This document shows positions 10,410-50,377 of a DNA stretch of 64,000 nt, in pieces (positions within the stretch are counted from its first letter, which is position 1; each line of letters starts with the position of its first letter). The notes beneath the pieces are model-generated. The model saw only the letters and a list, made by a program, of their open reading frames with translations, made no database searches and was not told the origin of the DNA. The DNA comes from Amphiscolops sp. MND2022. Taxonomy: Eukaryota. The stretch lies in assembly GCA_964187785.1 (NCBI GenBank), contig OZ076410.1, positions 42,966,001 through 43,030,000 of the forward strand, in the 5' to 3' direction. The translations under genes were made by a program, and so were the position numbers.

Positions 10410-10967
10410 TGTACGTTCTCTGGTTTTCGGCTTCTCCGGATTTTTCTATATTGTCTAGATATATAGTTCTATATAGTGCCAGATAAAGTTTGGAAGAAAC
10501 AGTTCTTCAATTTAACAATGTATTAAGCTTCCTGTTTCTACGCGTTGGATTCAATTGATGTTGTAGAAGTTTTTGTCGAGAAACAAACGTGTTGATTTGA
10601 TGAACTTCTTCGGAATTTATTTTACGGCAAATACAACTTCCAACAGATGTTATTTTCAACTTACCGCAAGCAATTCTCTCTGTCGTTGTGATGGTCTCTT
10701 TTGCTTCTTGGGTCTATAATTTGGGCAACTTCCTGCTTCCTGTTTGCTTGAAGGAAGGGGCAATCAAACTTTAAAAGCAGACCGCACCAAAAATGGAAAA
10801 ACGTGATTCTTATTATAGTTATAAAAGAGTTTAAATTTTTGATGATTGGTATTTAACTAATAAACTGCTGTCAAAATCAATATCTTTTTGGTGATAAATT
10901 TTTCTTGTTGGGTATATTCCATCAACGATGTCCTTTTTCAGGTCAATGGTAACATGGATATGTTACA
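10410..10967 (-). repeat. 3' LTR of gypsy A
   Basis: Minus-strand TGTAACA...TACA termini; colinear but diverged match to 31683-32275. Confidence 0.85.
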
Positions 10968-11264
10968 ATACCCAACTTCAGAAGCTTTTGAAAAATTGAC
11001 CGGTTGGTATTGTGAAGAAGCCAATTCCCGATTACAGGTGATGGTTGCGTAGCATGAACAACCGGGGAAGGCGATCCACACGCAGAAGTCCAGGTTAAGG
11101 AGAAGGGAGAAAATGAAGAGTCACATGATATACAATTCAAAAAGGATGATATACAGCTAAACAGTCATTGTTTATGATTTTTCAATTTCAGTGGATACAT
11201 GATTACACATTCGTTACCCTTGATTTATGTAAGAAAAGCTCTTTAAAGTGTTTTTTTTCTTTAA

Positions 11265-13620
11265 GAGGGGCAGGAAATGTATAATATGCAAAAGGCTAGC
11301 GTGTCTCTAGAGGAGCCACGTCGTCTAATAATGGTTGTGTCTGTCTCTCGTTGTTCAATGTCTGTGCTTGCGTTCGTGCCAGCGTTCAACATGTTGACAG
11401 CGCCAGCGTTCGTGCCAGCGTTTAGCATGTGGTTAGGGGCATATTTTTGGCATGTTTTGCATTTATGTTAGAAGAACATGAAAATGAAATGAAGTATCAT
11501 TGATCCGAAAATTGAAACGATGCTCATTCCAATTGATTTTCCAAGTCGATTACGAACTGAGTTCATCCTGCAGGATTGATCGTAACGTTCTCATTTTGCT
11601 CGTGATTGGTTTTGCTATTTCCATTAGTTTATCCGTTGTTTCTAGCTTCGGGCTCGTAAGAAGTTTTTGCTGAATTTCTGTCAGCATTTGAACTCCTGCA
11701 GCCGACCTTGTTGGAAAAGATGGCAATTTGTGTACTGGTGAAACTTCGCTCGAAAAGTGTTTTGGTGGGTCAGGCAACTTAACATGAATTTTCATCGCTA
11801 GTAAACTTTTACATGTTTGTAGGTCAGATCGAATTGTTATATGTGGTCCCGTGAGTTGTTTTCCACATGCTATTGTAATTATGCAAAAATTTCAACCTGG
11901 TTAATTGATCAAGCCTGTTGCCGTGTTTGAGTCTGAAGTAGTCGTATACAACGTGTAGGCGCTTTCGTTGCCGATGTCACTAACCAGACTCCATAGCCAA
12001 GGTTTTCTGCTTTTTCCTTAGGCGGCATTTCAATCACTTCTGTTTCGCATTGATTGTAGAATTGATTCTAACGTTCCTTTGAAGAACAATGTTGCCAAAC
12101 ACGATCCTTGACGATCCGTGTTCAGTGGCAATTGAACAATGACAGATTTGATAGGTTGCTGATCCAATGCAGCTCGCCAAATCGTATTCGATCAAAAGAG
12201 CTGTTTCTAAATTGTCTTCCGAGATATCGAGGAAGAGTTTCTGTTTTCCATTTCATAGCCAGTGTTGGTTCTGGTTGCGGCATTGGAATCGGTGTTGCTC
12301 TATAAACTGTAAGTGATGTTTGTATTGATGCCATTGGTTTTGATAAAGTCATTAGGACCTTCTTTCAGTGTTTTGACATCTGTCAAAAATTTTGCTTCGA
12401 AGTACGCTAGATTTTTTTTTGGTGTAATGGCCAATGTTAAACGATCGTCAGCTTGAACTTGTTCGATAATGACCTCTTCCAACATCTTCAGTAGTGATTG
12501 CCGCGGCACTAGTGACGTTGGTGTAAATTGTCCCAATATTGTTGGTATCGCATTCATAATGTTCAATTGGTAGGCGTACAATGCGCTACGGTAAGCCTTA
12601 ATGTTTGTATGTGTCATTGTTAGCAGAGATGTCACAGTATCATAACAAAAGTTCATTTGCTGTCGCGAAAATAGAAGTTTTGTACAGTCTCGTAACACAT
12701 GAATGTTGTTTTGAAACACAGCAAATTGATCTTCAATTTTCTTCCTGTAGTTGTCTTGTGTTTCAGCTAGTTAGTTTTGTATTTGATGTAACGTAGAGAC
12801 TTCATTCGCCAGCATGTAGAATTTTTCGTTAGATTGGGATCGTAATTAGTAAACATTCTCAGCGATGTTTTCGGAAAAGCGGGCCAGTCGAACTATGTTG
12901 TTTGCATTTTCCTTCTCTTTGTCTTGACATGAGCCGAAAACTCCTCTAAATCCACCGCCTTCACTACTGTTTAGTAGAATCCCACTTCCGAATAAACCAA
13001 CTTAAGCTAGAACAGCAAATACTGAAAGTGCTGCTCTCTACTCGACTTTGTCTTCCAAAATGTTCTTCGTTAGGATACAATAGTATTGCAATTCCGTAAC
13101 GTAAGGTCTGGAGATCGGTCGAAGCCAATTGTGATTCATTTTGCACGTGATGTAAAATCCAACCAAGGTCAAATACTGAGTCATTTGTTGCGAAATTCCC
13201 GGGAGTTTCAAGTCACAAAATGTAGTCTGTTCCTTCCAAAGTTGCTGCAAGGTCTGAACTGATTGATTGAGATGTTCGTGCAATTGTATATCCAAGTTCG
13301 GAAATGGTACCAAATGAATTTTATGGATGTATGAACTTTTCCGCTAGTAGGATTTTTGTCTCATGATTGAATATGATACCATTTTCCACAAGAGCATTTG
13401 CATCCGGATCAGGGATAATGTCTGATTCCCAATTTGCAGATTGTGCATAACTTGACAACAGGAGGACATCAGTACATACTGAAACGAAATATAATTGTCG
13501 ACGTTGTTCGGATTTGTGAAGTAGTTGTTGTATCTTATGTTAGAAGAAAATTGCACAAGAAGGTCATGGTAATTCAGATCCCTTGTTTTTGTTGTGAAAA
13601 GCAGGATGTCAGGTTGTCTC
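11265..13620 (-). pseudogene. env: env-like class I fusion glycoprotein remnant of gypsy A
   Basis: Basic cleavage-like site then a hydrophobic fusion peptide AALSVFAVLA*VGLFGSGILL (~12970-13035), heptad-rich region, NAIPTILGQFTPTSLVPRQSL, YRATPIPMP, Cys-containing CLATLF/CETEV/FCIITIAC, C-terminal TM IGMSIVSIFGSMILHFIFMFF (~11470-11545). Many stops and frameshifts. Confidence 0.75.
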
Positions 13621-14506
13621 AAGCTTACGAATAATCTACAGTGTTGTCAAAACCTATTGTGCGTCACTCAGGATACCGCGATTGTGTCGTGCGTCAAGGG
13701 ACGGCAAGAATGTGACACTTCCACAGTTGGAATGACAGCAACGGTTGGGGATCACTCTTGGGTGATACTATTTTTGCTGACAGGGCTCTTCGTGTTATTG
13801 GCTGTCGTTGCGAAAATATCTCGACGCTGATGGCCCTATTGAGAAATTTGACAAGATAGGAGATGTGATTCCAAGAGAAATAGCTGCAGCCGCCTGCAGA
13901 GCAGATGGAGCTTGTTTTTGTGTTTAATTTATGTGAATTATACTATTGAGATTTGTAAATGGAAGATTTGTATTTTCAAGATAGATAAATGTACATTGAT
14001 ATACACAATTTGAAATGGATGCATTTGCCTTTCTTGATGATGGAATTTGTAATGAAGGTGGAAAAAGGAATGTTGCTAGAAGGGTTCATTTTTTTTGGTT
14101 TCGTTGTGATTTTTTGTCGATGGATTGAAGTTAAAGGTTTAGGCCTCAAGGTTATTGCCTTGAAACTAGCTTAATCGAGCGCTGTCAGAATTGCCAAGCC
14201 TTTGCTTGATTGCCTTTCAAGCGGAAAATTCACTGTTGTGATGTTGATAAAAAATGTGTGACTCGAACGATTGATCGATTCAGTGAAAAATTGAGTTCGC
14301 TCTATAGCTGAAAGCCAAGGTATCTAAATTGTTCAAAAAGTATAATTCTTTAATGTATGTAGAGGGTTTACTCGATAGCGATTTCAGCCCAACTTTGCTG
14401 TCAGTAAAAAAAAATCAAGTTGTAAATGCTGGTTCGCTTTTGTTGTGATCGATGCTTTGAAAGAGTGACGCAGGAATGTTTCATGGGCATGCCCAATTAT
14501 GATAGC

Positions 14507-16093
14507 TGTCGCATATATTAATCTGAATAAATTTCAAAATGATTCCCCAAAAAAGTAAAAAGCTATATCGAATTCGTTTGCAGACCACGAGTTGTGTAAT
14601 TTGAAACAACATCAAGTGTTGTACTTTGTATATTTTTAAAGCTTGAAAGCGCTCCTCACCTCATGAAAACCTGGACCGTCTTTTCCCGCTACTTCTTCCC
14701 CGCGAACCCGGCTGTCTTATCGCACGCCTCACTCCTTGAGGCTGATATTGCGCACCCAGGTGCTGAACGCGCTCTTCCTCGAGCTCCTCGACCTTCAGTG
14801 TGGTGGTCATCAAAGCCGCTGGCCCTGGTCCCGTCAGTACACAGTGTGCAGTCAAGGAGGAAAACAGGACCACATCACCGGGCTCCTGGATGCAGTACGC
14901 TATATGTTCCTGGATTTGCAGCGAGTCATCCCGGAGCGTACTAGGCAGGGAACGATGCCTTTCCAACGGAGGCACGATGCGTTTCCTGCAGAGGGTCTTC
15001 ACCTCGCGTGTGCGAGTGGTGAAGAACCACAACTTCCTCCCCCTTTCCAGCTGGCTGACAATGCTTCCTTCCGGGTTGGAGTCTATGTGTCAACCACTCC
15101 ATGCCCAACCACCACTTGCAAGGAGTGAGACGTGCTCGATGGAGTGCCCGCCAATATCTTGGACAACCTCCACATACTGTTCTTCTTGCGGGTCTGGGTA
15201 TAGGGCCTCATATCGCCAGGGAGCCTCTGGAAGACCATCGAAAGCAGCGTCCTTCATCTGTGTGCACTTGAAGGTTGCCAGAAGTTGCTTCTCACTACGG
15301 AAACAAATAGCAACTCTCCTCGCTGCTCCGTTGGTGTAACGCAGCACAGGATTGCCACGTATAATAATGGGGATGTTCTGTTTCCTCAAGAAGTCTGTTA
15401 TGCCCCCTCCCTCACCCGAGTCAAAGGAAGCTTCCCCGACTCTAACTCCATTGTCAGGCTTAATGCAGCCTCAAGCTCATTCATCTCTAAAACAGCAAAC
15501 TTTACTCTTTCTTCATGTATATTTGTGGTTGATATTGTGATTTATAACTTTTAGTTGAAAACGAATTTTTGAGTTCATACAAGCTCACTGTGACAACGCG
15601 CTGAATGCAATCTTTGTTTGATTGACCATTCCTAACCCATTCATTCTCTTTGTTTTTGCTGAACACATGTTTTACGTTGCCTATTTGTTATATAGATCGA
15701 ATTGAACAAAGTGTTTTGCCAATGCATACAACATATTTGTTAGCCAAAAAGCGTGCAGTTACATAACTCCAATTGCATCATTTTGTGTCATTTGTGTCCA
15801 TTGACTGGTACATGAATTCTAAACATCGTGCTTCATCGTCAAAAACCTCACCCACCATGAATAGAGCTGTGAACTGTTTCGAACTGCCAAAACACGCAAA
15901 ACGCAATAATCTTTTAGTTTAATAAAGCTTTAAGGCTTCAACTCAGTTTTGTTCGAGTCTCTTCAGCAAAAATCATAGTCTTACTTCCTGATAGTGGTCA
16001 GGTGGTCCGCCATTCAAGAACCAAGGGCGAGACTACTTCGCAAGCTACAAGCAAAGCATTCTCGCAAACAACAGAGGGACATCGACGCGAACA
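14507..16093 (+). repeat. 5' LTR of BEL element (1587 bp)
   Basis: Starts TGTCGCATAT, ends GCGAACA, AATAAA near 15920; direct repeat of 21556-23167. Confidence 0.95.
14661..15484 (-). pseudogene. JmjC-domain gene in the 5' LTR (disrupted copy)
   Basis: Same protein as 21806-22558. 1-nt deletion in a C-run near 15403 and TGG->TGA just before HID. Retains the basic C-terminal tail GVRRAIRQPGSRGRSSGKRRSRFS. Confidence 0.85.
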
Positions 16094-16095
16094 TT

Positions 16096-16113: not shown

Positions 16114-17534
16114 ATGGCTGAGTCAGGAACAAACAACTGGGCGGAAGATGTTCGCAAACTAGTGTGAGGGCAGGACACAAGGCTGCTTTCACAAAATACG
16201 AGACCAGAGTTGATGACCTCGTAGCAGATCACGCAATTACCAGTGAGAAGCTCTGTGAAGCGGAGGCGCTGTTTTCTACGTTGCAGAACATGTACAAAAC
16301 AATTCTCAGATGGGACGCAGAGATCGAGCTCTATATTGAAGACGATGCCAAGCTGGCACAAGAACGGGAGGCATTCTCAGATTACGAGACTAGGATGAAC
16401 ATCGCCATGGCTCGTCTCAGTGCACTAATTGACAACATCAAGACCCAGTTGAAGGCGGGACTTACAGCAACCGCATCAACCTTATCAAGCCTGCCGACTA
16501 CAGGACACATGCGTCTGCCGAAGCTCCAAATGCCAACTTTCACTGGAGCCTATACCGATTGGGTATCTTTCAGCGATCTCTTCCAAGCAGCAATGGGCTC
16601 AAGCAGTCTTTTATCTGACTCTGAGAGACTAAATTACCTGAAAGCCTGCATAAAGGGTGATGCTGCGAAAATAATCAGCTCACTTAGAATCACAGATGCC
16701 AATTACCTCATTGCGTGGCAGCTACTAAAGGACAGATACGACAACACACGAAGTATAGTGCACGCTCATTTGCAAGCCATTTGGTCTCAGTCGTCAATGA
16801 AGGTAGAATCTGGGTCTGGCCTCAGGAAACTACACGAAACCACCAATGAGCACCTGAGGGCATTAGAAGCTTTAGGTCGACCAGTGAACCAATGGAGTGC
16901 TGTATTAGTTTTTTGCATCGCCGACAAGCTCGAAGCAGAATCACGAAAACAATGGCAGCTCAAACATCCGGGCAAAAATGTCCTTCGCTGGGACGATTTA
17001 TCCAAGTTCTTTGATGAAAGAAGCAGGGCATTAGAGAGTGGTGCAATCAAAGTGATTCCCCAAGCCAGCAAGATGAGCTATCAACGTGAGCCTCGGCATC
17101 AGCCTTATGCAGCTTCAATGGCGTGTAGTGAAAAATGTGACGTTGAACACAAACACCATGCGGGTCCAAAATTCAAGAAGATGTCAACGTCCCAGAAGTA
17201 CGACTTGGTGAAGAAGAAGAAGCGTGCTTGTTTCAATTGTTTGCAGACTGGGCACAGTGTCAGCGAATGTGTTTCTAAATTCAGCTGCAGGGAGTGCAAG
17301 GCCAAACACCACACTCTACTTTACCGACCAAAGCCTGCGACAACTTTACATGGCGGGTCAAACAAGACAATAGCGAGGGTGTCAATTTCTGTCAACACAA
17401 CAATTCAGTCTGGCGGTTCAGCAGGTCAGCAAGCCGATACTTCTGTCTTGACTGAGCATTGCGGGTCTGGATCTCCAAATGCCGGTGCTCTACTTCCAAC
17501 GGCAGTGGTACCCATCCACAATAAATCAGATTGA
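16114..17534 (+). pseudogene. gag: BEL gag (DUF1759-type capsid plus Cys/His knuckles)
   Basis: RLPKLQMPTFTGAYTDWVSFSDLF; LNYLKACIKGDAAKII; CFNCLQTGHSVSECVSKFSCRECKAKHHTLL. Frameshift near the start and a stop at 17534. Confidence 0.92.
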
Positions 17535-20500
17535 AAGGGTACATCTACGAGCCTTGTTAGATTCCGGATCACAGGTTAGCTTCATTACAGAGGCAAAAGC
17601 GAAGGCACTAATGTTGAAATTGCAAAAAAACCGTCAACCATCATAACTCTGGGTGCTTCTAGCTCACAAAAGACATGCGGCGTGTTACCAGCCACGATTT
17701 CAGGTTCGATAGACGTTAACTTTCACGTGATCCCTAAGATAACTGGTTCACTGCCTTGTGCAATTGTGGATATCTCCCAGATGCGTCACGTAGATCATCT
17801 GAAGCTGGCTGATCCCAGTTTCACTCTACCTGGCAAAATTGACATGCTTCTGGGAGCCGACATCATTGAAGATCTAATGCTGGACAATCGAATCAGGGAC
17901 AATGGTCTCATCCTTCGAGAGTCACTCCTGGGCTGGATTGTTTCGGGTTCAATTTTGGAGACGAGTGGTGTAATCTCGACTCTTCATGTGACAGTGGCAA
18001 GCGATGGGGAGTCAAATAAGTTACTAGCGAGATTCTGGGAACTAGAGAGTGTACCAGAAAAGAAGCACCGCACGATGGAAGAGGCTCATTGCGAAGAACA
18101 TTTTGATGCAACAACCACAAGAGACTCAACCGGAAGGTTCTATGTGAGGTTACCTTTCAAGGCAGACGGTCACTTGCTGGGTCAGAGCCGAGCTTCTGCA
18201 ATGAGACGATTCATCAATCTGGAAAACAAACTGAAACGTGACAACTTGCTTAAAGTCAGGTATTCTGATTTTGTTAATGAATTTTTGAAACTGGGTCATC
18301 TAGAGAAGGTACCTGATGGAGAGTTGGACAATTTAAACCACTACTACATGCCCCATCATTGTGTATTAAAAAATGCCAGTACAACGACAAAGCTGCGGGT
18401 GGTCTTTGATGCTAGTGCCAAGACAGCAACAGGTCTTTTGCTAAATGACTGCTTGATGGTGGGCCCGAAACTGCAACACGACCTATTCAGCATTTTGATA
18501 CGATTCCGATTCTTCAAGGTTGCGTTGTCGGCAGACGTTGCCAAGATGTATCGACAGGTTGGTCTAGACCCCAGAGACAGGGACTTCATGCGAGTCCTCT
18601 GGCGATTCAGTGAAGACGAGCCTGTACAGACTTTTCGTTTGACGCGTGTGATTTACGGGGTAGCAAGTTCCTCTTATCACTCAATCAGATGCTTGAGGGA
18701 AGCAGCCCAGCTTGATGGTGTACCAAAGGCAGCCAAAGAAGCAATTCTACGTGATTTTTATATGGACATCATTTTGACAGGAGCTAGTAGCATTGAGGAA
18801 GCTGAGCAGCTTCTCAATGATTTGATACAAACTCTTGAACGAGTTCAATTTGATCTGAAAAAATGGACCAGCAATGTTCCTTCTCTTGTCTTAGCACTTC
18901 CCGCAGAGTATAGTGAAGCAAATGAAAACCTCAAGTTTCTTCATCCAACTCATACCACAAAAACATTGGGCGTCACTTGGAACCCTTTTGATGATTTGTT
19001 CTCGCTTGAGGTAGCTCACATCTCTGATGACATCAATGACGATGGAATGACAAAAAGACGAATGCTTAGTGACATCGCCAAAACTTTTGATCCTCTGGGC
19101 TGGTTGTCTCCGGTGACAATGCTACTGAAGAGCATGATGCAAAGGGCCTGGCAAACAAATGTCGACTGGGATCAGAAACTGCCAACCGAGATTGATATGA
19201 GCTATCGCACCTGGCGGAAGAATCTACACAGTTTAAAAGAGATCAAGTTGCAACGCTTTGTTCTGAGCGAAGAACAGCAAGAACCTTTCGAATTACATGT
19301 CTTCTGCGATGCCTCAGAGAAGGCATATGCAGGCTGTGTATACGTGGTCTCCACCAATAATCGAGGTGAGAGGAATTCCAATCTACTTGTGGCAAAATGC
19401 AAAGTCTCTCCACTGAAAACACAATCTATTCCTCGCTTGGAATTGTGCGCCGTGCTTCTCGGATCTCGTCTGGTGTCATTAGTCATTCAGGCACTTGAGC
19501 GAATTTCTGTCAACATACGTGCAACAACGGGCTGGAGTGATTCCACAATTGTTCTCTGGCTTTCTCAAGAACCAGGTAACTGGCCAACGTTTGTGGCGAA
19601 CAGAGTTGCCGAAATACAGCGCAATGACCGTGTTCATTGGCAACACGTACCCACAAAGGACAATCCAGCTGATGCAGCGTCTCGTGGTGTTGAGCGAAGT
19701 GTACTAAAGAGCCTGGAAATTTGTTGGAAGGGACCAACTTGGTTACGTAGTGGAGTGCTAGCGTCACAACCGAAACCAAACTTCACTGAAGATGAAGCAA
19801 AAAGGCCAGAGCGACAGATCCTACACCCTAGAGCGGCTAAAAGGACTCCCTTGGCAAGAGTGGTAAGAACAGTGCCATCAGTGTCCCTTGCAGTTACAAA
19901 GGTTGACAACTATGCAGGTGACATCTTTGACCTTTCGCTGTTCAGCTCTCTGTCAAAGCTTCTCAGGGTAGTGGCGTATTTCAAACGATTTATACAACGC
20001 ATTCGTAACTGAGGCACCAAGGGATCATTAGGCACCATCTCACCTGATGAAATGACGGAAGCGATGATGATTCTTCTACGGCAAGAACAAAAGAAGGTTT
20101 ATTCCGACGAAATGAAAACCTTGGAGACCATGCCTCAGGTAAAATCGACAAGCAAAATCCTAAAATTGTACCCATTTTTATTCAAGGGAGTCCTTTGTGC
20201 TGGTGGTCGTCTTGCCCACGCCAATTTACCAGACGAGGCTAAATATCAGCGATTAGTTCCGAAGGAAAGCAGACCCGCTACGCTTGTCATTAAAAAAGCT
20301 CATCTGGATACGCTACATGGGGGCCCCAAACAAGTGATGGCTCAGATCAGATCAAATTTTTGGATACCCAACAACCGTAGTGTTGTGAGACTAGAACTTC
20401 AGCAGTGCGTGAAATGCAGCAGGTTCACAACCAAGCTGAGTGCGCCGCTTATGGGAGACCTCCCTAAGGAACGCATTGACGTCCCAACCAGAGCCTTTGA

Positions 20501-21420
20501 AAACGTGGGGCTAGACTTTGCAGGACCTTTTCTATGCAAACCAAGCAGCAAGGCCAGAAGTCAGGACAAAGCCTACATGGCTTTGTTTGTTTGTTTCGCC
20601 AGTAAAGCTGTCAACATTGAGTGTGTATCCGATATGGCCACTTTGGGGTGTATGGCAGCAATACGACGTTTTATATCTCGAAGAAGTTGTCCCAGTCAAG
20701 TATTCTCTGACAACGGAACCAACTTTGTTGGCGCAGCCAACGCGATTCAGCAATTGCAAAAGGTTCTATCCAACAAGCATGACAACTCGCTGCAATCCCA
20801 ATCTAGTGCTATTGGCATTCGATGGAACTTCATACCCCCAAGCGCTCCTCATTTCGGAGGTTTATGGGAAGCGGCAGCGAAAAGTGCGAAGAAACACTTA
20901 GGCAGAACAATGAGCAACAGTGTCCTGACATTTGAGGAGTTGACAACTCTTTTTTGTCAGATCGAGGCAGTGCTAAACTCGCGCCCAATCAGTGTAATGT
21001 CCGATGATCCCTATGAAGTTGAACCACTTACATCAGCACATCTTTCAATTGGACACAAACTAGAAGTGATACCTTGTTTTTTTATTGGACCAAACCCATG
21101 ACATGGACAATTGCAGTCCCTCAAAACGATGGTATCACATTCAGAACATTCTGTTGCATTTCTGGAACAGATGGACCAAAGAATACGTAACCACATTACA
21201 GAAAAGAAGCAAATGGAGACGAGGAACAAGCAATTTGAAAGTGGGCGTTTTAGTTTTCAACACCGATGACAATTCAGCACCTCTACAATGGCCAATTGAT
21301 TGCGTCCATTACGTCTACAGTGGACCTGATGATGCCGTCAGAGTAGTCAAGGTGAAAACTCCAACTGGAATATACAATCGGTCTGTTCACAAGTTGAAAA
21401 AACTACCTATTGATACATAA
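17535..21420 (+). pseudogene. pol: BEL pol (protease, RT, RNase H, integrase, C-terminal DUF5641-like domain)
   Basis: RALLDSGSQVSFIT; LRVVFDASAK, ADVAKMYRQV, FYMDI; LHVFCDASEKAYAGCVY; LDFAGPF, FSDNGTNFVGA, PHFGGLWE; FWNRWTKEYVTTLQKRSKW. A few stops and frameshifts. Confidence 0.95.
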
Positions 21421-21555
21421 CCTCCTCAATCTTTATTGAAACACACTGTAATCAGCTGTTTGTTAATGCCCTTTCATTGTCAACTCCTTTGATGCTATAT
21501 TTGTACGTCATGTAACTTTTTTGATTTGCGCCACGCAAAATCAAGGCGGGCGGTA

Positions 21556-23167
21556 TGTCGCATATATTAATCTGAATAAGTTTCAAAATGATTCCCCAAA
21601 AAAGTAAACAGAGTTATCGAATTCGTTTGCAGACCACGAGTTGTGTAGTTTGAAACAACATCAAGTGAAATAGTTTTGAAGAATTGTGTTTTTGTACTTT
21701 GTATATTTTTAAAGCTTGAAAGCGCTCCTCACCTCATGAAAACCTGGACTGTCTTTTCCCCCTACTTCTTCCCCGGGAACCCGGCTGTCTTATCGCACGC
21801 CTCACTCATTGAGGCTGATATTGCGCACCCAGGTGCTGAACGCGCTCTTCCCTGGCCTCCTCGACCTTCAGTGTGGTGGTCATCAAAGCTGCTGGCCCTG
21901 GTCCCGTCAATACACAGTGTGCAGTCAAGGAGGAAAACAGGACCACATCACCGGGCTCCTGGATGCAGTACGCTATATGTTCCCGGAATTGCAGCAAGTC
22001 ATCCCGGAGCGTACCAGGCAGGGAACGATGCCTTTCCAACGGAAGCACGATGCGTTTCCTGCAGAGGGTCTTCACCTCGCGTGTGCGAGTGGTGAAGAAC
22101 CACAACTTCCTCCCCCTTTCCAGCTGGCCGGCAATGCTTCCTCCCGGGTTGGAGTCTATGTGCCAACCACTCCATGCCCAACCACCACTTGCAAGGAGTG
22201 AGACGTGCTCGATGGAGTGCCCGCCAATATCTTGGACAACCTCCACATACTGTTCTCCTAGCGGGTCTGGGTATAGGGCCTCATATCGCCAGGGAGCCTC
22301 TGGAAGACCATCGAAAGCAGCATCCTTCATCCGTGTGCCCTTGAAGGCTGCAAGAAGTTGCTTCTCACTACGGAAACAAACAGCAACCCTCCTCGCTGCT
22401 CCGTTGGTGTAACGCAGCACAGGATTGCCACGTGTAAAAATGGAGATGTTCTGTTTCCTCAAGAAATCTGTTATGCCCCCCTCCCTCACCCGAGTCAAAA
22501 GAAGCCTCCCCGACTCTAACTCCATTGCCAGGCTTAATGCAGCCTCAGGCTCATTCATCTCTAAAATTGCAAACTTTACTCTTTCTTCATGTTTTTTGTG
22601 GTTGATATTGTGATTTATAACTTTTAGTTGGAAACGAATTTTTGAGTTCGTACAAGCTCACTGTGACAACGCGCTGAAAGCTATCTTTGTTTGATTGACC
22701 TTTCCCAACCCCATTCATTCTCATTGCTTTTGCTGAATACATGTTTTACGTTGCCTATTTGTTGTATAGACCGAATTGAACAAGGTGTTTTGCCAATGCA
22801 TACAACATATTTGTTAGCCGAAAAGCGTGCAGTTACATAACTCCAATTGCATCATACTGTGTCATTTGTGTCCATTGACTGGTACATGAATTCTAAACAT
22901 CGTGCTTCATTGTCAAAAACCTCACCCACCATGATGAGAGCTGTGAACAGTCTTGAACTGCAAAAACATGCAAAACGCAATAATCTTTTAGTTTAATAAA
23001 GCTTTAAGGCTTCAACTCAGTTTTGTTCGAGTCTCTTCAGCAAAAATCATAGTCTTACTTACTGATAGTGGTCAGGTGGTCCGCCATTCAAGAACGAAGG
23101 GCGAGACTACTTGGCAAGCTACAAGCAAAGCATTCTGGCAAACAACAGAGGGACATCGGCGGGAACA
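21556..23167 (+). repeat. 3' LTR of BEL element (1612 bp)
   Basis: Follows PPT AAGGCGGGCGGTA; TGTCGCATAT...GGGAACA. Confidence 0.95.
21806..22558 (-). CDS. JmjC/cupin Fe(II)-2-oxoglutarate oxygenase encoded antisense within the BEL 3' LTR (250 aa open; ~24 C-terminal codons cut by GGA->TGA)
   Basis: SGWHIDSNPGGSIAGQLERGRKLWFF (HxD at 22154-22162; GxKxW lysine) and CIQEPGDVVLFSSLTAHCVLT (distal His at 21917-21919) match the JmjC consensus. Confidence 0.85.
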   Translation of the reverse strand: MNEPEAALSLAMELESGRLLLTRVREGGITDFLRKQNISIFTRGNPVLRYTNGAARRVAVCFRSEKQLLAAFKGTRMKDAAFDGLPEAPWRYEALYPDPLGEQYVEVVQDIGGHSIEHVSLLASGGWAWSGWHIDSNPGGSIAGQLERGRKLWFFTTRTREVKTLCRKRIVLPLERHRSLPGTLRDDLLQFREHIAYCIQEPGDVVLFSSLTAHCVLTGPGPAALMTTTLKVEEAREERVQHLGAQYQPQ

Positions 23168-31505: not shown

Positions 31506-31682
31506 TTCTTTAAATTCATCTACAGTTTACTCTTCAGTTGTTTTTCGCTACGATGTTGGTTCAAGCTTATACACAGATGAATCACGGATGATAGTTGAAA
31601 CGATGAACAACTAATAGAGATGAAATCAAGTGAAAAATCACCCACAAATGATGATTCTCAATTGTCGACACAATTGTCACCA

Positions 31683-32275
31683 TGTAAGACCTCTGGTTTT
31701 CGGCTTCTTTGGATTTTTCTATATTATCAATGAAGTTTCAGATATCTTTTGGAAAAAATAGAGTTCTTTCTTTTGACAATGTATTCAGCTTCCCCTTTCT
31801 ACGCGTTTACACGCGAACAACGGGTTCGGTTGATGTTGTAGAAGCTTTTGTCACTGTTGTAGAAGCAGCTTTTTGATATTTTTCTTCAGAACAGAGAAAA
31901 AAACAGTTGAATTGATGAATTTCTTCTGACTTTAAATTATGACATATACAATTTTCAACTGATGTAATATTCAACTTATCGCAAGCAAGTCTCTCTGTCG
32001 TTGTGATGGTCTTGTTTTCTTCTTGAGTCTATAATTTGGGTAACTTCCTGCTTCCTTTTTGCTTGAAGGATGGGGCGATCAATTTTAATAAAATGCCGCA
32101 CCCAATATGGTAAACACATGAATATTAATATAGTTGTATAAGTGTTCAAACATTTGATGATTGGTAATAATTTGCTGTCAAGTTCATTAATCTTTTAGGT
32201 GATAAACTTTTATTGTTGGGTAAATTCCATCAACGATGTCCTTTTTCAGGTCAATGGTAACGTGTATATGTTACG
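31683..32275 (-). repeat. 5' LTR of gypsy A, with PBS TGGTGACA at 31675-31682
   Basis: Colinear with 10410-10967. The terminal TG is mutated to CG. On minus, LTR ..TACA abuts TGGTGACA. Confidence 0.85.
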
Positions 32276-39343: not shown

Positions 39344-41032
39344 TGTCGTAACCAGATTCATCGTCACTTTGTTGAGAATCAACAGAATTCTCTCTACAGT
39401 AGTTTGTTTGGTTACTTTTGATCGATATTAACCTCGGAAACTCATTCTGAGCATCCTGGGACAATTTATTAGCATTTTCTGGATGCAGTCTATTTGACCG
39501 AAAGTCCTTCTGAGAATTTTCTTGGGCTGCATTATCTTGATGCAGTCCGTCTGACCGAAGGTCCAAACTTGTATTTTTTGCTGAATTCTGTCTCCTAACA
39601 GCATTTTTGTTGCTGGGCAACACTCTAGTGTCAATTGAAGTGTTTATAACGTCCAATATCTGGGAATTTAAGCTAGATTGCATTTCTTCAAATTTCCTTG
39701 ACATCTGTGACGAAATTTCTGAGCTAATAGCTCTTCTAGTTTCAACAGTCAAACAACTATTTTCACTCAGATTAGTATTCAAGTAAGACCTGGAGTCACT
39801 CTCATTTTGATTAGCATTTTCCTCATGTCTAGTTGACCTTAAGTCAATTTCTCCTTCATCATTCTCATTTTGAGCTAGGGAGATATCTCTCTGATAACTC
39901 CCTAACATCACATCTAATTTCTCAATGTCTGACATTATGTCAGATTGTCTCGAACGCCTTTCCTTTGCTTTCTGTTTCCTAGTAGAAGGCATAATCAAGA
40001 ATTATTCAAACTGAAGAAATGAATTGACTTGACAATTTGATATATCAAACTCAATGAAATGAAATGAGATTAAACAGAGTCTAAATTTTGTAAAAAATAT
40101 AAGATCAGTTTCGACAAATAGTCAATATTCGTGATAGCAGTTTCGTTGTGGTTGGGAGGTTCGTAGTAGCATTTGTGTCCCTTGACCTTTGGTTTGCTCC
40201 TAATTATAGTCTGATTGGGGTGACAGACGAAATTGTGAGTGTCACGTTACTAAATTTAGAACAATTTGTTACTGAAAATAGCTCCATCCGGGTTTCATCA
40301 TCATGACGTATTTACCACAAAATACATCAAAGGCACGATGGTGGACCAGGCGGCACAACTGATTATCAACTTTACATCTTGGATTAGTCTAGTTTCATGT
40401 TAAAATTGAACCGCAACACTACATGTAATTGTTACATGTAATACAAAATTGGTATTTGACTTAGTGTCAACGTGACTGCATCAAGTGATTATTAATACAA
40501 GTACAACCTGAAGTGGACGTAACGTACTATTAACTGCAATAGTGTACTAATTAGGTTAGCACCCAAACTAATTGTTTATCGGATTGACAACGCGTCAGCA
40601 GGACTGCATAGTTGTACCTGTTGAACGCACTTCTAATTCAACAATTGAATGTGCAATTCATACCGACTAAATGACGACTAAGTTTATATATTGGGCAGTA
40701 CAACACTAAAGCGCAAAGATTTACCAAAATCTAGAATAATAACTAACACAATATTTCATGTAACATCACTACGGCATTAATATTAAGGTACTGGAATTTT
40801 TGGTGTGCAGTCAGTTTGACCTTGGGTCAAAGTTTGCAAATGTTGAGTTTATTCATATAGCCACTGGAGTTCAATTAAGTTTCGTACACTGGATTCAGGG
40901 CCATCAGACTAAACGTCAAATGGTCACATTAGGACTTGCATCAGACAGGTAGGACTCCGGGTGCAGATAGATGCTCGAAACCTTCCGCCATTATTTGATA
41001 CAGGTTGCCGTCACAAGCGGCAGCTTGCGACA
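39344..41032 (-). repeat. 3' LTR of gypsy B (1689 bp), contains the Gag N-terminal ORF
   Basis: Highly similar direct repeat of 48690-50377; ORF MPSTRKQKAKERRSRQSDIMSDIE...ESGYD. Confidence 0.95.
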
Positions 41033-43398: not shown

Positions 43399-46300
43399 AT
43401 GGACAAGTTTGCAGGAAGTGAACCGCGTATTTTCATTTCTTTTTGCTTAGGTAATGAATCAAGTGGCCTAACTGCCCCAGTCTGTCAATGCGGTTGATTC
43501 TACAGCTACCAAACTTGACGATTCTGAACAAGCTGAGATTTCCTCTGATGATTCTATTGAAGTGATAGAAAGTACGCTTTCCAGTCCGGAACTCGTCGAA
43601 TCAACCCCAAGTTCCCCTTGCAAAGGTGCCGTCAAACTGGAACCCGAAGAGTTTAGGTCACAACCTTTGATACAGACGCCAATTGACCTTGGTTGTACCC
43701 TCAGTAGTAGCGAATCGAGCGAGAGTGTAGGTGCATTCTTTACCCGCAAACTGGAGGCCTTCCAAGCTTTCAAACTGGAGTCTACAATTGCTAATGGTAC
43801 TGTCAAACATAGTGAGAGCGAAGGAATCACAATGTTCCCTAATTACGAGTTTGCGTCCCCTGAACCTCAGGTTCCCTGTTTCAGTGGCAGTTACAGAACC
43901 CCACAAGACACTGTCAATGAGAGCCTGGACGAGTTTACCTTTCCTTCCCCGCTCAAACACGCCTCTGCCCAAGGTTCAGCTATAAGCCGTCAGGATGACC
44001 AGATGTCCACTGATGAAGCTCCAGTTAACGTGCGTACCTGCACTCCCAGCAGTGAAGTTGAGATGGAAGTGACTAGTGACCAAGCGTCCGTTGGTCAGGC
44101 AAGATCAACTTTGGCTGACGCTATGGCCCCGCCGAAAACTAGAGTTGTGACCTATTCTACTGACGGGCTTGACAGTAGTTTGCCAGAAATGGACACAACA
44201 AATGAAAAGACTCGTGCCCCGCTCTCAATTAAGAGCCGCGACTTAATCCGCGAATACTTTGCTGAGACACGACCCATCAATTTGCCTCAGGGTCATCCTG
44301 TCATAATGTTCACCCAAAATCAGATGAGCAGTGTTTTGCTTATCGTTGCGGATGAAACCGCAACAGCCTCATAGGACATGTTAAACAGCGTCGTAGTCAG
44401 AGCAATCAGACTTAACTTAGGCCCTGGGCAGTCTAATGCTCAAACGGGGAAGCAACAAACCAAGTCTTCCCCATTTGGGTTTACTGACTCGGCGACTGAC
44501 TTAGACTCTTCTAGACCAGCTACTCCCGCTACAGTGGAACCAGCAGAGAATTGACTAGCGGAGAAGACTTTTGGGGATCTGATCGGTCCCGCGAAATTTC
44601 CAGAAGCAGAACTTCTACTGTTCACATTCACAGTCCCCCCATTCCAGGGTGCAGTCGAACCAACCAGAGGTCTATTACACTTTTGGGGGTTGACGGTAGT
44701 TCTGCCACTCAAACCCTCGCTGAGTTGAGGCAGAAAGCGATCAAAGACAAAGGCAAAAAGAAAACGAAACCCGCTGGAAGATCTAAAGTCGAGAATCCAC
44801 AGAAGGCAGTAAAGAGATTTAGTCGAATCATGAGAGAAGAGCATTTCGAGGGTATGTCCTGGACTAGGACCTTTGTTTCCGGACCTATGGACCCAAAATG
44901 GAATCGTTACAAGTTTTATTGCCAGATATGTAAGGGCAATGTTTCCATTTACGGACGGGGAGTCAAAGAAATCTTGCGTCATTACGCTACCGAGCGCCAT
45001 TTACGCAAAGACCAACGATGGCGATATGAATACATGGTCATTGAAGATCCAGTCATCAAGACCATTCGTCACCAAGTCAGAGGCAGGGATGGTAAAATTC
45101 TCTCTCCCTACGATCTGGAATTGGAATACCCCAAATTCAAAGATGCTGAGTTGGTCAACATTGGCGAGAAGTTGCCTTTTCACGAAGAGTTTATGGCAGG
45201 CAACGACCGTATGACGTCTTCATCTGATAACCGCGTTCGAGTTCAGATTTCAGTTCCTGGCCACTTCCTACCGGCATTCGGAAACATTGGGTCACTCAGG
45301 AGCTTATGGCGTGACATCGGAGTGGTGGTCAACCCAACCATCAGTCGTTGTTTGCTGATTTCAACTGGGGGAAAGAGCGTCTAACAGTAAGTATCTTTTA
45401 GATTATCTAGCCTGCTTTTGGTCTTGGTAAATGTATTTACATTGGAGAATGGGCAAATTAGGTCTCAATGTCGTAACTTCTAGTAGAGTGCCCTGGGCTT
45501 CTATAAGTTGTTTCCATCACATCGATATAGGATAACCACCGAGTAATATTTGTTGCCAGGTTTTGTTTCATCACATCTTCACCCAACTCATAGATGATCT
45601 TGGACAACATGTAGTATCCGACGGTAAATACGCAGTTGAGTTTGAGCTCCGTGGAGTCTTCCTATTCTTGCATCTGCTATTCTGGAGAGGCAAGCAGCTA
45701 TGTAGAGTCCTAATCAAGCGTACTGGACGAGTGGGCGGGCAGACTGCAGCTGAGGTTAAATTGCTGGCGAGTCTCCTTGCCGCGATTTCTTCTCGCCCGA
45801 ACCTATTGTGCAGTGGAGGATGTTCCCTTGAGCTGATCCAACTCCTCGACAATAGTTCTCTATTCCCTTTGGCAGTGCAAAGTCCGACACGATTCAGTGA
45901 CATTTCTCTTCAAAAGCTTATGCACAAGAAAAGTTATAGCGTCTTCGGTCGACTTTTTCTCCGTGCTGAAGTACATCATTGTTTCACTCGGTGGTAGCCT
46001 GGACCTTGAGTGCGTTCTCCTAGCCCCAGAACTATCAAAGGTTGGTCAACTTTTGTTTTTTCATAATCTTGTGCCCTTTGCTAGTACGGTGATTTTGTGT
46101 TATAGGCAATACGGAACTGCGAGTTGGATATGTCTAAACTCCACGTGATGTGCCAAGAACTGCTGGTCAACTGGAAGTCCATCATCGATTTCTTAACCAA
46201 GCATTGCATTCCATGTTCCAGCAAATGGAAGGGGTACTAAGACAGGTTGGATATTGCAGTCTCTCCGACATTAGGTCTATATAGCATTGTTATCTTGTTT

Positions 46301-47615
46301 CATTTGCGATTGATTTGCAGCCTCAAAACCTGGAGTGGTCTATCATTTGTGACGAACTATTCACGTGCCGGCTAGAATTCTCCCAACGATTGGTCCGCGA
46401 TTGTTAGTAGTCCCATTCCTGTATAATGAACGAGTGTTTCCAAGCAGGTTCTAATCAGCTATATGTTTAGACGCCAATAGTTTCTCCATCAGTTTGTCTG
46501 GACGTAGGGACCGAGCGTTCTACACATACCGGCAGACCTGTCAATTCCTCTTCAAGATAGCGCGACGATGCTCCAGTCCATCGGACCTCCCGTCTGACGA
46601 AAATTGGCCGAAATTCTGGACCTCGATTTAAAGACTACTTCTGCCTTGAGTGTGCCAGCTTTCCTCAACCGCATGAAATTCAATTCTAAACTTGATGTTG
46701 CCTGCAAGGTTCGAGCTGAACGCGATAAACAGGACAAGAAGAACGCTACTTTGACCTTGAATTTCCTAACGAAGATGAACCAGCATGAGTTTGGAAGGAC
46801 TGCTCGTAGCTATGTGACATTCCTTTTCAATTCCGTCCAACAGACAAAGGGTCTATCTAGTGATATCATCAAAGGCTTGGGGTGTTTTGATCTCGAGACG
46901 CTGCTGAACGGGCCCAAAGGTCACGCGATCTACTGCCATTTACAACTGTTTACCAGTTTTAGGCTGCGGAAGTTCTTCACTGATGAGGAAGAGACTATGT
47001 GTTGCGAGGAAAACGAGTCATTTTTAGAGGATCTGAGGCGCAATTATCCTGACCTTGTTCACCCGACTGTCTTCATATCTGACACAGTGACCTTTCTGAT
47101 GGAATCGCCTTCTCAACGTAATCGGCCACTGTTGTTCAAGCTCATCCGATTAGCTTGTTTGTGTTTGGACGAACCCTTTCAAAATTTACCAGCTGTCAAA
47201 TTCGGTTCCGTTGATTCTGAGGATCCTACCAGCAGTTGACGTAATTCTCCCAGTTCAATCCTATTTCCGAAACGTACCCCATGGTATTGAAGCCATGACT
47301 AGCGACAAGTCCATTGCGGCGTTTCTCCAATTAGAGCCCAATTTTGGTGGAAGTGGACTGAGTGATGTTTATTGTCCTTGGGAGAGTGTTGATTTCTTTG
47401 GGCGTGCTAAGTTCCTGGAGCAAATTGATCCCAGCAAGACGTGTCGTCAAGTTCAAGAGAATAATGCCGTTGCCGGAACTTCTACTGCCAGTAAAACTTT
47501 GAAGAGTACAAAGTCTAGTGACAAGGTATCGAAGAAGACTAGTCATTTGTTAACTCGTGCGAAGCTGTCTCAGTCAGTCAAGGGTTTTTTATTCGCTAGT
47601 GAGTCTAAATCATAA
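43399..47615 (+). pseudogene. Antisense multi-exon gene in gypsy B: S/T/E-rich N-terminus, BED-like C2H2 finger, hAT-transposase-like body
   Basis: KFYCQICKGNVSIYGRGVKEILRHYATERH (44914-45000). GT-AG intron 45387-45559 joins KERLT|VLFHHIF in frame. C-terminal helical region includes RPLLFKLIRLACLCL. Several stops and frameshifts. Confidence 0.65.
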
Positions 47616-47829
47616 TTGTACCGTATGTACAATTGTATTTTCTAGCTTGTAAATTTGTTTTGTTTATTTCTCATATTTATGTTCCTGTATTATTCGTTTG
47701 TTGTTTTATGTCAAGTTTGTCAATGATTTGTTCGGACTGAGAGTCTGATCAGGCTCCATAAAAAAACTATTCATTGAAGAAAGATCCGAGGGGCTATGAA
47801 TTCAGTTTTCTTTCTAGTAACTGTATTCG

Positions 47830-48613
47830 TCAGTAAAGTTGGGGGTGGGGTTAGGGCGTAGATTGTACCTTCCTCCCCTGGGACTTTCCTTTTCTACAAC
47901 TGAATCATCTGTTTCTTTGTCTGATAAATCGGGCACGATTGCATCCTTCCCTCTAGAGTTTGAAAAATCAGAAACTCTTTCTTCTGAGGTGTTCTCAGAG
48001 GTAGTTGTCTCAGTTTCTAAATCCGTAGTTGATTGCTGTCCTGTTGACCTATGGTCGGTGTCGGCTTCATTTTCAGTCGACTGCTCAAGCAGTTGCTCAG
48101 ACTCAGCTGAGTGAGTATCATGTTGCAGTCTAGCTGACCGACGGTCTAGTTCGTCTCCGTGCTGCTCAGCAGCAGCGTCATCAGTATTTCAGCAGCGTCA
48201 TTAGTATTTTGGTCGGGTCGCGTGGACCTGTGGTCCAAATCTGTAATTATAGTGTCAGGATGAGCAGCATCACCTGCGGAACCAGTCAAAGTATGAGGTA
48301 AATCAGAGTATGAGGGAAAAATGTCAAATTCTATCTCCCAAGATATGATATATAGATCATCCTGAGGAATAACAATTTCATCGTCAGCTTGTAATTTGCC
48401 TTCTGGACGAACGTCAGTTATTTTTGTATTCGGGGTATATTTTGGTAAACGTATGGGATGTAGAATTTGCGAGTTGAGTTTTCTGACGATGTAGTTCTCG
48501 TTCGGTAGGACCTTTTCGATGACATATGGTCCAATCCACCGGAATTCTCGGTGGCTGTAGTATAAAACAGTAGTCACCCTGTTGTAATGGAGCTGCTGTG
48601 GCTTTGCAATCAT
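47830..48613 (-). pseudogene. pol: Gypsy integrase C-terminal fragment and low-complexity tail
   Basis: EFRWIGPYVIEKVLPNENYIVRKL..QILHPIRL; the tail ends GGRYNLRPNP. Confidence 0.85.
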
Positions 48614-49344
48614 AGTACTCTTTCTACTTTAGGTACGATTGCATGATGTATCTTCGGATGCGTGGGTTCGAATCCCACTCCTGTCACCATGTCGTAACCA
48701 GATTCATTGTCACTTTGTTGAGAATCAACAGAATTCTCTCTACAGTAGTTTGTTTGGTTACTTTTGATCAATATTAACCTCGGAAACTCATTCTGAGCAT
48801 CCTGGGACAATTTATTAGCATTTTCTGGATGCAGTCTATTTGACCAAAAGTCCTGTTGAGAATTTTCTTGGGCTGCATTATCTTGATGCAGTCCGTCTGA
48901 CCGAAGGTCCAAACTTGTATTTTTTGCTGAATTCTGTCTCCTAACAGCATTTTTGATGCTGGGCAACACTCTAGTGTCAATTGCAGTGTTTAGAACGTCC
49001 AATATCTGGGAATTTAAGCTAAATTGCATTTCTTCAAATTTCCTTGACATCTGTGACGAAATTTCTGAGCTAATAGCTCTACTAGTTTCAACAGTCAAAC
49101 AACTATTTTCACTCAGATTAGTATTCAAGTAAGACCTGTAGTCACTCTCATTTTGATTTGCATTTTCCTCATGTCTAGTTGACCTTAAGTCAATTTCTCC
49201 TTCATCATTCTCATTTTGAGCTAGGGAGTTATCTCTCTGATAACTCCCTAACATCACATCTAAGTTCTCAATGTCTGACATTATGTCAGATTGTCTCGAA
49301 CGCCTTTCTTTTGCTTTCTGTTTCCTAGTAGAAGGCATAATCAA
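48610..49344 (-). CDS. gag: Gag N-terminal ORF initiating inside the 5' LTR and reading through the PBS (244 aa, truncated by the internal deletion)
   Basis: MPSTRKQKAK...ESGYD|MVTGVGFEPTHPK crosses the LTR/PBS junction in frame. Confidence 0.7.
   Translation of the reverse strand: MIMPSTRKQKAKERRSRQSDIMSDIENLDVMLGSYQRDNSLAQNENDEGEIDLRSTRHEENANQNESDYRSYLNTNLSENSCLTVETSRAISSEISSQMSRKFEEMQFSLNSQILDVLNTAIDTRVLPSIKNAVRRQNSAKNTSLDLRSDGLHQDNAAQENSQQDFWSNRLHPENANKLSQDAQNEFPRLILIKSNQTNYCRENSVDSQQSDNESGYDMVTGVGFEPTHPKIHHAIVPKVERVL
48648..48689 (+). tRNA. 42-nt 3' fragment of a tRNA-Leu including CCA, serving as an extended PBS of gypsy B (not a tRNA gene)
   Basis: GTATC-TTCG-GATGC variable-arm hairpin + GTGGGTTCGAATCCCAC T-arm + TCCTGTCA + CCA, abutting the LTR. 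No 5' half upstream. Confidence 0.8.
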
Positions 49345-50377
49345 GAATTATTCAAACTGAAGAAATGAATTGACTTGACAATTTGATATATCAAACTCAA
49401 TGAAATGAAATGAGATTAAACAGAGTCTAAATATTGTGAACAATATAAGATCAGTTTCGACAAATAGTCAAGATTCGTGATAGCAGTTTCGTTGTGGTTG
49501 TGAGGTTCGTAGTAGCATTTGTGTCCCTTGATCTTTGGTTTGCTCCTATTTATAGTCTGATTGGGGTGACAGACGAAATTGTGAGTGTCACGTTACTAAA
49601 TTTAGACCAATTTGTTACTAAAAATAGCTCCATCAGGGTTTCATCATCATGACGTATTTACCACAAAATATATCAAAGGCACGATGGTGGACCAGGCGGC
49701 ACATCTGATTATCAACTTTACATCTTGGAGTAGTCTAGTTTCATGTTAAAATTGAACAGCAACACTACTTGTAATTGTTACATGTAATACAAAATTGGTT
49801 ATTGACTTAGTGTCAACGTGACTGCATCAAGTGATTATTATTACAAGTACAACCTGAAGTGGACGTAACGTCCTATTAACTGCAATAGTGTACTAATTAG
49901 GTTAGCACCCAAACTAATTGTTTATCGGATTGACAACGCGTCAGCAGGACTGCATAGTTGTACCTGTTGAACGCACTTCTAATTCAACAATTGAATGTAC
50001 AATTCATACCGACTAAATGACGACTAAGTTTATATATTGGGCAGTACAACACTAAATCACAAAGATTTACTAACATCTACAATAATAACTAACACAATAT
50101 TTCATGTAACATCACTACGGCATTAATATTAAGGTATTTGAACTTTTGGTGTGCAGTCAGTTTGACCTTGGGTCAAAGTTTGCAAATGTTGAGTTTATTC
50201 ATATAGCCACTGAACTTCAATTAAGTTTCGTACACTAGATTCAGGGCCATCAGACTAAACGTCAAATGGTCACATTAGGACTTGCATCAGACAGGTAGGA
50301 CTCCGGGTGCAGGTAGATGCTCGTAACCTTCCGCCATTATTTGATACAGGTTGCGTCACAAGCGGCAGCTTGCGACA
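48690..50377 (-). repeat. 5' LTR of gypsy B (1688 bp)
   Basis: TGTCGCAAG...TTACGACA on minus, directly followed by TGGTGACAGGAG. Confidence 0.95.

Follow-up and report, generated by a model that had tools for sequence, protein, structure and literature searches.

The DNA analysed here (the window) is a 64-kb stretch of contig OZ076410.1 from Amphiscolops sp. MND2022, corresponding to G000:C2:42966001-43030000 in the 1.07-Gb genome that we searched; positions of window features are counted in the whole stretch. It contains three long terminal repeat (LTR) retrotransposons that each carry an accessory gene antisense to their own coding genes: a JmjC gene in an env-bearing gypsy (gypsy A), another in the LTRs of a BEL element nested within it, and a spliced zinc-finger gene in a second gypsy (gypsy B). 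The features are listed in Table 1. The cargo copies of all three window elements are broken.

Gypsy A is a minus-strand element with LTRs 73% identical (flanks or target-site duplication (TSD) AGAAC/AGAGC). Its plus-strand JmjC gene lies between pol, which ends near 25547, and env, which is the arrangement described in the original prediction; the BEL (14507-23167, LTRs 94% identical) is inserted between the JmjC gene and env. Once the BEL is subtracted, the two genes stand head-to-head across a gap of about 0.8 kb. The flanks of the BEL, ATAGC and GATGC, do not match as a clear TSD. Env open reading frames (ORFs) are 750-850 aa long, and that of a gypsy A relative shows two hydrophobic segments and weak PDB profile matches to fusion proteins (spike/F, E 0.4-0.95); Pfam scans of the ORFs of fetched elements gave no match for the env-like ORFs. 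The antisense JmjC gene proposed for the BEL LTR was indeed found as an ORF in both LTRs, the 3' one stopping short of the 293-codon frames seen in most copies. As had also been proposed, the two JmjC genes of the window are not recent copies of each other. They give no significant pairwise BLASTP match, yet their family profiles match (hhalign probability 96%, E 2.5e-9), so they are homologous.

Most of gag-pol is gone from gypsy B (39344-50377); it still has the integrase end, together with a gene on the plus strand (43399-47615) and a 3' ORF. This layout agrees with the original prediction, whereas its label for the gene, BED/hAT-like, found no support from Pfam, HMM or hhalign comparisons, structural comparison (Foldseek, VIA) giving a weak likeness. 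The 3' ORF is conserved across families (37-58% identity) with a fixed C-terminal PGVLP motif, and matches no Pfam family. In the pol of the gypsy B family (L075:2127-7304), a dUTPase-like domain stands between protease and reverse transcriptase (RT; Pfam E 6e-4).

Table 1. Features of gypsy A, the nested BEL and gypsy B in the window (PBS, primer-binding site; PR, protease; RH, RNase H; IN, integrase).
Feature	Position	Strand	Description
Gypsy A 3' LTR	10410..10966	-	73% to 31683-32275
Gypsy A env-like gene, split over several frames	11550..13942	-	83% nucleotide identity, env-LTR region of C6 relative
BEL 5' LTR	14507..16093	+	93.7% to 21556-23167; TG..CA ends; then PBS
Antisense JmjC ORF in BEL 5' LTR, one internal stop (TGA)	14661..15470	-	Pfam JmjC E 0.012
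BEL gag-pol-integrase with stops	16122..21420	+	DUF1759, Peptidase_A17, RVT_1, Integrase_H2C2
BEL 3' LTR	21556..23167	+	pairs with BEL 5' LTR
Antisense JmjC ORF in BEL 3' LTR	21806..22558	-	Pfam JmjC E 0.0044; H-x-D...K...H intact
Gypsy A antisense JmjC gene, clade A	23395..~24430	+	stops and frameshifts; tblastn 75-81% to open-frame C6 copy
Gypsy A pol remnants PR-RT-RH-IN	25547..29949	-	RVT_1, RT_RNaseH, rve
Gypsy A gag remnants	30395..31526	-	ORFs; 86% to C6 relative
Gypsy A 5' LTR	31683..32275	-	PBS TGGTGACA adjoins
Gypsy B 3' LTR	39344..41032	-	97% to 48690-50377; TSD AATAC
Gypsy B 3' ORF, frameshifted here	40944..~41800	-	sense; runs into LTR; acidic N-terminus; conserved Cys/His motifs
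Cargo exon 1	43399..45386	+	long low-complexity N-terminus, then C2H2/BED-like finger; broken in window copy; GT donor
Cargo exon 2	45560..46040	+	predicted RNase H-like core; AG acceptor
Cargo exon 3	46106-46245	+	predicted by homology
Cargo exon 4	46321-46402	+	predicted by homology
Cargo exon 5, basic C-terminus	46471..47615	+	frameshifted in window copy; no hAT dimerisation domain match
Gypsy B integrase C-terminal remnant	47817..48662	-	tblastn to open-frame pol of relative
Gypsy B 5' LTR	48690..50377	-	gag N-terminus begins inside LTR; then PBS

The JmjC genes belong to large transposon-borne families. The match lists of the four JmjC queries overlap, and each count is a lower bound: at least 137 genome matches for the gypsy A type (identity down to about 30%, many in open frames), at least 152 for the BEL-LTR type (150 out of 555 candidates were scored; many matches come as pairs with a spacing of about 7 kb, which two LTRs would give), and at least 104 and 135 for two further queries. 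Carriers were called on fetched 20-kb contexts of JmjC loci, which were among the best matches and mostly had long open frames. Among the 14 clade-A loci, 11 are gypsies with the order pol, antisense JmjC, env; two are BELs holding the gene antisense after integrase, and one is Maverick-like. Seven of the 10 clade-C loci are BELs, again with the JmjC antisense after integrase and with LTRs 91-100% identical; of the other three, one is next to a gypsy and to SET-like ORFs, and for two no carrier was identified. Three weaker matches fall inside the 3.1-3.4-kb LTRs of a distant third gypsy clade (L181-L186), whose LTRs are 99-99.9% identical with the antisense JmjC inside them, and whose env is divergent; in two of these elements, L181 and L183, a further sense ORF separates env from the LTR. 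Two env-gypsies bear a JmjC nearer to the BEL-LTR type. The predicted presence of JmjC cargo in two superfamilies is thus borne out and extended by a 16-kb element (L268/L159/L160, G000:C2 ~23199400-23215600) with a JmjC gene in both of its 4.6-kb inverted repeats, which are 98.9% identical, begin with AGTAGT and are flanked by a 6-bp TSD, GACGAA. We take this element to be Maverick/Polinton-like, with family-B polymerase motifs inside.

Seen from env, 41 of 132 genome-wide env matches lie within 4.5 kb of a listed JmjC, which in every case (41/41) is antisense and upstream of env; for the 23 env matches most similar to L161 the figure is 22. Elements with 99-100% identical LTRs bear open cargo frames. 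A ready matched control exists in L157/L158, where 2 kb separates a JmjC-bearing BEL, its LTRs 100% identical, from a BEL without cargo. In the JmjC tree, element-borne sequences form a clade of 41 rows with support 94/90 and long branches, as set against few outgroups (one JMJD4-like host row and two DNA-transposon JmjCs, the KDM5-like, KDM6-like and L219 rows having been dropped). Repeated acquisition, as the original prediction had it, taken as fresh capture from host KDMs, fits less well than one old transposon-borne JmjC family that moved between superfamilies and was swapped as a cassette, its monophyly relative to host KDMs being tentative. Outside the fetched loci, JmjC relatives amount to 456 clusters at E <=0.001. 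Six short metagenome contigs match at 32-39% identity, and one outside protein has its best match in the Amphiscolops genome at 42%; a search for viral contigs returned none.

We modelled the JmjC protein from an open-frame clade-A copy (C6), a relative of the broken gypsy A gene, and obtained an AlphaFold model with a mean confidence (pLDDT) of 90.4. Its top Foldseek ranks are ceKDM7A, PHF8, KDM7A and PHF2 (E ~1e-7, KDM7A 6e-8; 13-14% identity), and VIA aligns it to KDM7A with Z 14.1 (rmsd 4.2, 237 aligned), PHF2 with 13.9 and KDM2A with 13.4. A PDB profile search gave weak matches (E 0.1-0.67), four of six rows being KDM7/PHF8; single-sequence PDB searches with both JmjCs, and a BEL-type profile, gave none. 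An Atlas feature search returns JmjC clusters (0.96), and Pfam JmjC is above the cut-off for the BEL-type L002 (E 2.6e-5) and L213. Residues W150, H155, E157, K172 and H231 are invariant in 20/20 clade-A/LTR-gypsy proteins; among the top 30 BEL copies in the alignment, 29 read HDKH and one HEKH. By its modelled fold, then, the cargo is a JmjC oxygenase, with the full ligand set present. The gene is under purifying selection: frames stay open at 28-50% protein identity, and the ratio of non-synonymous to synonymous change (dN/dS) is 0.10-0.38 in 13 of 19 pairs, the other six being saturated with the frame kept. A K/R tract (>=8 in 20 residues) occurs in 13 of 15 proteins, a count taken with no background control.

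Sequence comparison shows that both kinds of cargo are exchanged as cassettes between near-identical backbones, and the JmjC also between Gypsy and BEL, a feature absent from the original prediction. Identity between the env-gypsy on C6 and L153 is 96.6% in LTR-gag-pol (6.6 kb) and 96.8% in env-LTR. The JmjC block between these two segments gives no blastn match; there the proteins share 50% identity, and the silent sites have reached saturation. Among 29 zinc-finger loci, many pairs are 1-4% apart in RT yet 24-33% in cargo, which falls into discrete types; L282 and L284, for example, have distances of 0.01 in RT, 0.00 in integrase and 0.25-0.27 in cargo. Distances correlate at 0.65-0.87 within gag-pol and at 0.22-0.55 between gag-pol and cargo in the same loci. 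In an RT tree, a BEL with a clade-A JmjC is sister to a BEL with a clade-C JmjC (support 99; J117 and BELltr_201 were dropped as too short, and J220, probably from a nested element, was unused). A single clade is rejected both for the BEL-borne JmjCs (p-AU 2.5e-6) and for the env-gypsy-borne ones (p-AU 9.8e-6), the groups having been named after the tree was viewed. We also considered faster neutral evolution of the cargo and rejected it, as cargo silent sites are saturated where pol has a synonymous divergence (dS) of 0.11-0.20 in the same pairs.

The zinc-finger cargo of gypsy B is likewise a family-wide feature. The genome search gave 7860 first-look candidates, of which the best 150 were scored; the 29 loci fetched from these (9 + 20) were mostly chosen for long open frames. 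In 29/29 the gene lies antisense beside the gypsy pol end, and another gypsy holds, antisense to pol, a remote counterpart of exons 1, 2 and 5. A three-frame comparison of five diverged relatives resolves five exons with common intron positions, and the splice sites are conserved: the exon-2 acceptor is AG in 30/30 cargo loci, and donors 1 and 2 are GT in 24/24 and 20/20 loci where they were located. Silent sites of the exons are saturated in 22 of 24 comparisons, the proteins still being 47-88% identical. The matches listed by an exon-5 search at near length were all ENA proteins (37-99% identical), and no longer homologue with introns turned up when one was sought. A composite locus is L309/L310 (G000:C3:31878600-31898599), where a gypsy pol is followed by a distant antisense zinc-finger homologue and a clade-C JmjC running into Ns; further along come SET-domain ORFs (E 0.0015) and then another ORF, in which we presume tyrosine-recombinase-like motifs. 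The whole may be one element or two.

As to what the zinc-finger gene encodes, exon 1 of the window copy matches zf-C2H2_ZN292 (Pfam E 2e-4), and the exon-2 model, with a pLDDT of only 46, has an RNase H-like topology for which Foldseek places Hermes transposase chains at ranks 1-6 (E 6e-3 to 3e-2); VIA finds nothing more specific than generic RNase H folds, Hermes scoring Z 5.4. PDB profile searches with this cargo gave nothing meaningful and Atlas no usable match. Like Hermes and other hAT transposases, the protein would have an N-terminal C2H2/BED-like finger followed by an RNase H-like core (Foldseek). It differs from them in being spliced and antisense in an LTR element, in having no terminal inverted repeats (TIRs) or TSD and no dimerisation-domain match (PF05699, none in 16 exon-5 sequences), and in acidic positions that are apparently replaced. 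In an approximate Hermes register, the first Asp would correspond to Glu in exon 2 and the second to Cys, Ala or Ser. A hAT origin is opposed by a profile test of exons 1, 2 and 5 against 37 ORFs of the genome's own hAT loci, which gave no match, and by hhalign probabilities of only 0.1-2% between cargo and hAT. That the cargo is a catalytically dead, hAT-derived DNA-binding protein is therefore a weakly supported suggestion. A nested hAT DNA transposon was rejected: the four elements scanned had no cargo TIR with an 8-bp TSD, only 0-3 chance 11-mer inverted pairs with at most 3/8 flank matches.

These elements carry a swappable antisense cassette, 3' of pol or in the LTR, that encodes a stand-alone JmjC with its metal ligands intact in some and a spliced zinc-finger protein in others. 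We propose that transcription starts at a promoter inside the element, perhaps a bidirectional one lying in the head-to-head gap, and the antisense position would let introns survive in genomic RNA. Template switching during reverse transcription is established for LTR elements, and switching between co-packaged RNAs is the likely route of the swaps. The JmjC protein would be an active Fe(II)/2-oxoglutarate (2OG) enzyme that strips repressive histone methyl marks, the zinc-finger protein may be a dead hAT-derived DNA binder, and many old alleles might be kept as the host tracks common ones. On this reading, to which we assign a probability of roughly one half, the cassette likely acts in the nucleus and counters chromatin silencing of its element, at a location and on a substrate that we infer. 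An arms race over silencing, the interpretation given in the original prediction, is likewise a candidate explanation, with a fold that ties demethylases with hydroxylases. That interpretation is favoured since the cargo genes are neither single-copy accidents nor nested DNA-transposon insertions: they are family-wide, evolve under purifying selection and have no TIR or TSD of their own.

Several observations weigh against such a role. VIA Z scores of 13.7 for JMJD5, 13.1 for JMJD6 and 12.9 for FIH are tied or nearly tied with those of the demethylases, so fold does not separate demethylase from hydroxylase. Sequence identity is low as well, at 9-15% to the solved JmjCs. Pfam detects no reader domain (PHD, CXXC) in the 280-460 aa JmjC ORFs scanned, which leaves the route of the protein to its own element unexplained. 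No JmjC was detected near 91 of the 132 env matches; JmjC-less env-gypsies are common and young ones persist. Three of the four JmjC-less slots read hold small unrelated antisense ORFs, two of them resembling membrane proteins, and the fourth shows none, so the pol-env slot is not chromatin-specific. Finally, six comparisons show that zinc-finger cargo type does not follow the type of the 3' ORF/U3 block: L085 and L284 have common cargo (95%) and a different 3' ORF and U3, and L085 and L279 differ in cargo (65%) and have a common 3' ORF and LTR (89%). This disfavours a simple lock-and-key between factor and LTR of the VANC kind, in a comparison of seven loci, one of them disrupted (L283), that allows for targets elsewhere in the cassette.

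These points leave room for other readings. It is rather unlikely, in our judgement, that the JmjC, instead of working on histones, targets host defence proteins or element RNA, as a protein hydroxylase or an arginine/RNA demethylase (JMJD5/JMJD6/FIH/TYW5-like). JMJD5, JMJD6, FIH and TYW5 all come within about 1 Z unit of KDM7A, the small stand-alone JmjC architecture is that of hydroxylases, an RNA m6A demethylase is described in orchid gypsies (PMC9289625), and a Macro-like domain at the pol end of some env-gypsies (E 4e-4) would suit general counter-defence. Yet the best-ranked structural and profile matches are KDM7/PHF/KDM2, the basic tails suggest nuclear import, and a chromatin role rather than a hydroxylase role is favoured because DNA transposons of the same genome carry SET and KDM2/7-like cargo. 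Less probable still is that the antisense genes are self-regulators or competitors (HBZ-like), which would damp or time transcription of their own element or exclude rival elements. Antisense regulatory proteins are known in HTLV and proposed for Retand (PMC11963269); many discrete cargo alleles on one backbone recall incompatibility types, and head-to-head placement with env or the 3' ORF permits promoter interference. One JmjC family shared by Gypsy, BEL and Maverick-like elements with unrelated promoters nevertheless fits an activity directed at the host better than an element-specific switch.

We give hardly any credence to the cargoes being nested insertions or passively carried host fragments without function for the element. 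The three broken window copies, a possible descent of the zinc-finger gene from a hAT transposase, and the choice of fetched loci among the best matches with mostly long open frames would all be compatible with it. Position and orientation are fixed, however (41/41 for JmjC, 29/29 for the zinc-finger gene), frames stay open at 28-50% protein identity with dN/dS far below 1 and conserved splice sites, and copies with 99-100% identical LTRs have open cargo frames; the four elements scanned showed no TIR plus 8-bp TSD. Going beyond the cassette itself, we regard as tentative, somewhat short of even odds, a genome-wide market in which a transposon-specific histone demethylase module would circulate among Gypsy, BEL and Maverick-like elements, alongside the dead hAT cargo and the SET/KDM DNA transposons, with host tracking keeping alleles diverse.

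The DNA transposons in question are two families of about 19 kb with TIRs, with ends CATTACA, an apparent 2-bp TSD and copies 99.7-99.8% identical (L229/L187/L188/L230 at G000:C7 ~8647000-8666000; L231/L191/L192/L232 at G000:C1 ~26449800-26469200). They carry a KDM2/7-like JmjC, a SET domain and a BRCT domain, and, of the genome's 66 Pfam JmjC matches, about 55 agree with these families in frame length. Other ORFs in them, which have no Pfam match, we take to be RAG1/CMC-transposase-like by their motifs. The Macro-like domain lies at or just after the pol end of env-gypsies (L173:7541-8683, L336:2989-3498, L338:2859-3500; Pfam E 4e-4 to 0.08) and is possibly a further counter-defence domain. 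Among small antisense slot ORFs of JmjC-less env-gypsies (L337:509-976, L337:1698-2174, L338:522-1441, L339:653-1129), two are like single-pass membrane proteins with basic tails; the other two resemble each other and belong to no family. Elsewhere in the window, 52977-63847 is another minus-strand gypsy (LTRs 85%) with a 2-kb pol segment in tandem copies. Its RT is related to the gypsy B clade; its pol ORFs extend as far as the LTR, and an antisense slot is not apparent. On the plus strand, 3861-5843 holds fragments of a Copia-type gag and pol, and a short ORF at 2602-3048 has a faint YqaJ recombinase-like match (E 0.21).

Among known systems, the closest in layout are the plant Retand elements, Ty3/gypsy elements with a family-wide antisense ORF downstream of pol, proposed to encode a nuclear regulator (PMC11963269). 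The Retand TRP28 domain has no known function and is bound to its lineage, whereas in Amphiscolops, an animal, the cargo is either a recognizable enzyme or a gene of five exons, is found in more than one superfamily and is exchanged in the form of alleles. In Phalaenopsis, Gypsy elements have fixed another 2OG dioxygenase, an AlkB m6A RNA demethylase ORF read as counter-surveillance; there the gene is described as recently acquired, close to host genes and confined to one lineage (PMC9289625). The Amphiscolops gene is instead of the JmjC class, 9-15% identical to solved JmjCs and spread over several superfamilies, with a putative activity. The word JmjC occurs 0 times in the main text of the orchid paper, whose supplementary domain screen might hold matches, and 0 times in a giant-transposon review. 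Anti-silencing encoded by a transposable element is described for Arabidopsis VANDAL/VANC, a trans factor that diversifies fast in a proposed arms race with silencing; VANC resides in DNA transposons and is matched to target repeats of its own (PMC5735166). In Amphiscolops no cargo-LTR pairing was seen in the six comparisons, and anti-silencing is a proposed role. Animal env-bearing gypsies with which gypsy A can be compared are Oikopleura Tor4b, with an internal promoter for env in its pol-env spacer (PMC4402516), and planarian Burro, with many accessory domains (PMC6431247); the passages on them mention no antisense JmjC.

At the level of the protein, KDM7A/PHF8/PHF2, KDM2A, JMJD5, JMJD6 and FIH share with the cargo the fold, the facial triad and the position of the 2OG-binding Lys. 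The cargo is unlike these oxygenases in being element-borne, in a single open frame and with a basic tail, no reader domains being detected. In full-text literature, mostly without subscription papers, Repbase and supplements, we found no paper on JmjC genes in LTR retrotransposons. We therefore rate the system as one that probably works like accessory systems of the Retand/VANC type, with a true JmjC by fold and ligands, a candidate KDM status, and a zinc-finger gene that is not a hAT transposon.

Only a handful of cases, most of them from plants, show how transposons counter chromatin silencing. The LTR elements of this animal carry a fold recognizable as that of a chromatin enzyme, its ligands intact, which recurs in several superfamilies and hundreds of copies. 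Near-identical elements with different or no cargo are natural matched controls, which make the arms-race idea directly testable. Cassette swapping lets accessory genes cross between Gypsy and BEL, usually counted as separate lineages, and this diverged, minimal JmjC family could supply new demethylases or hydroxylases.

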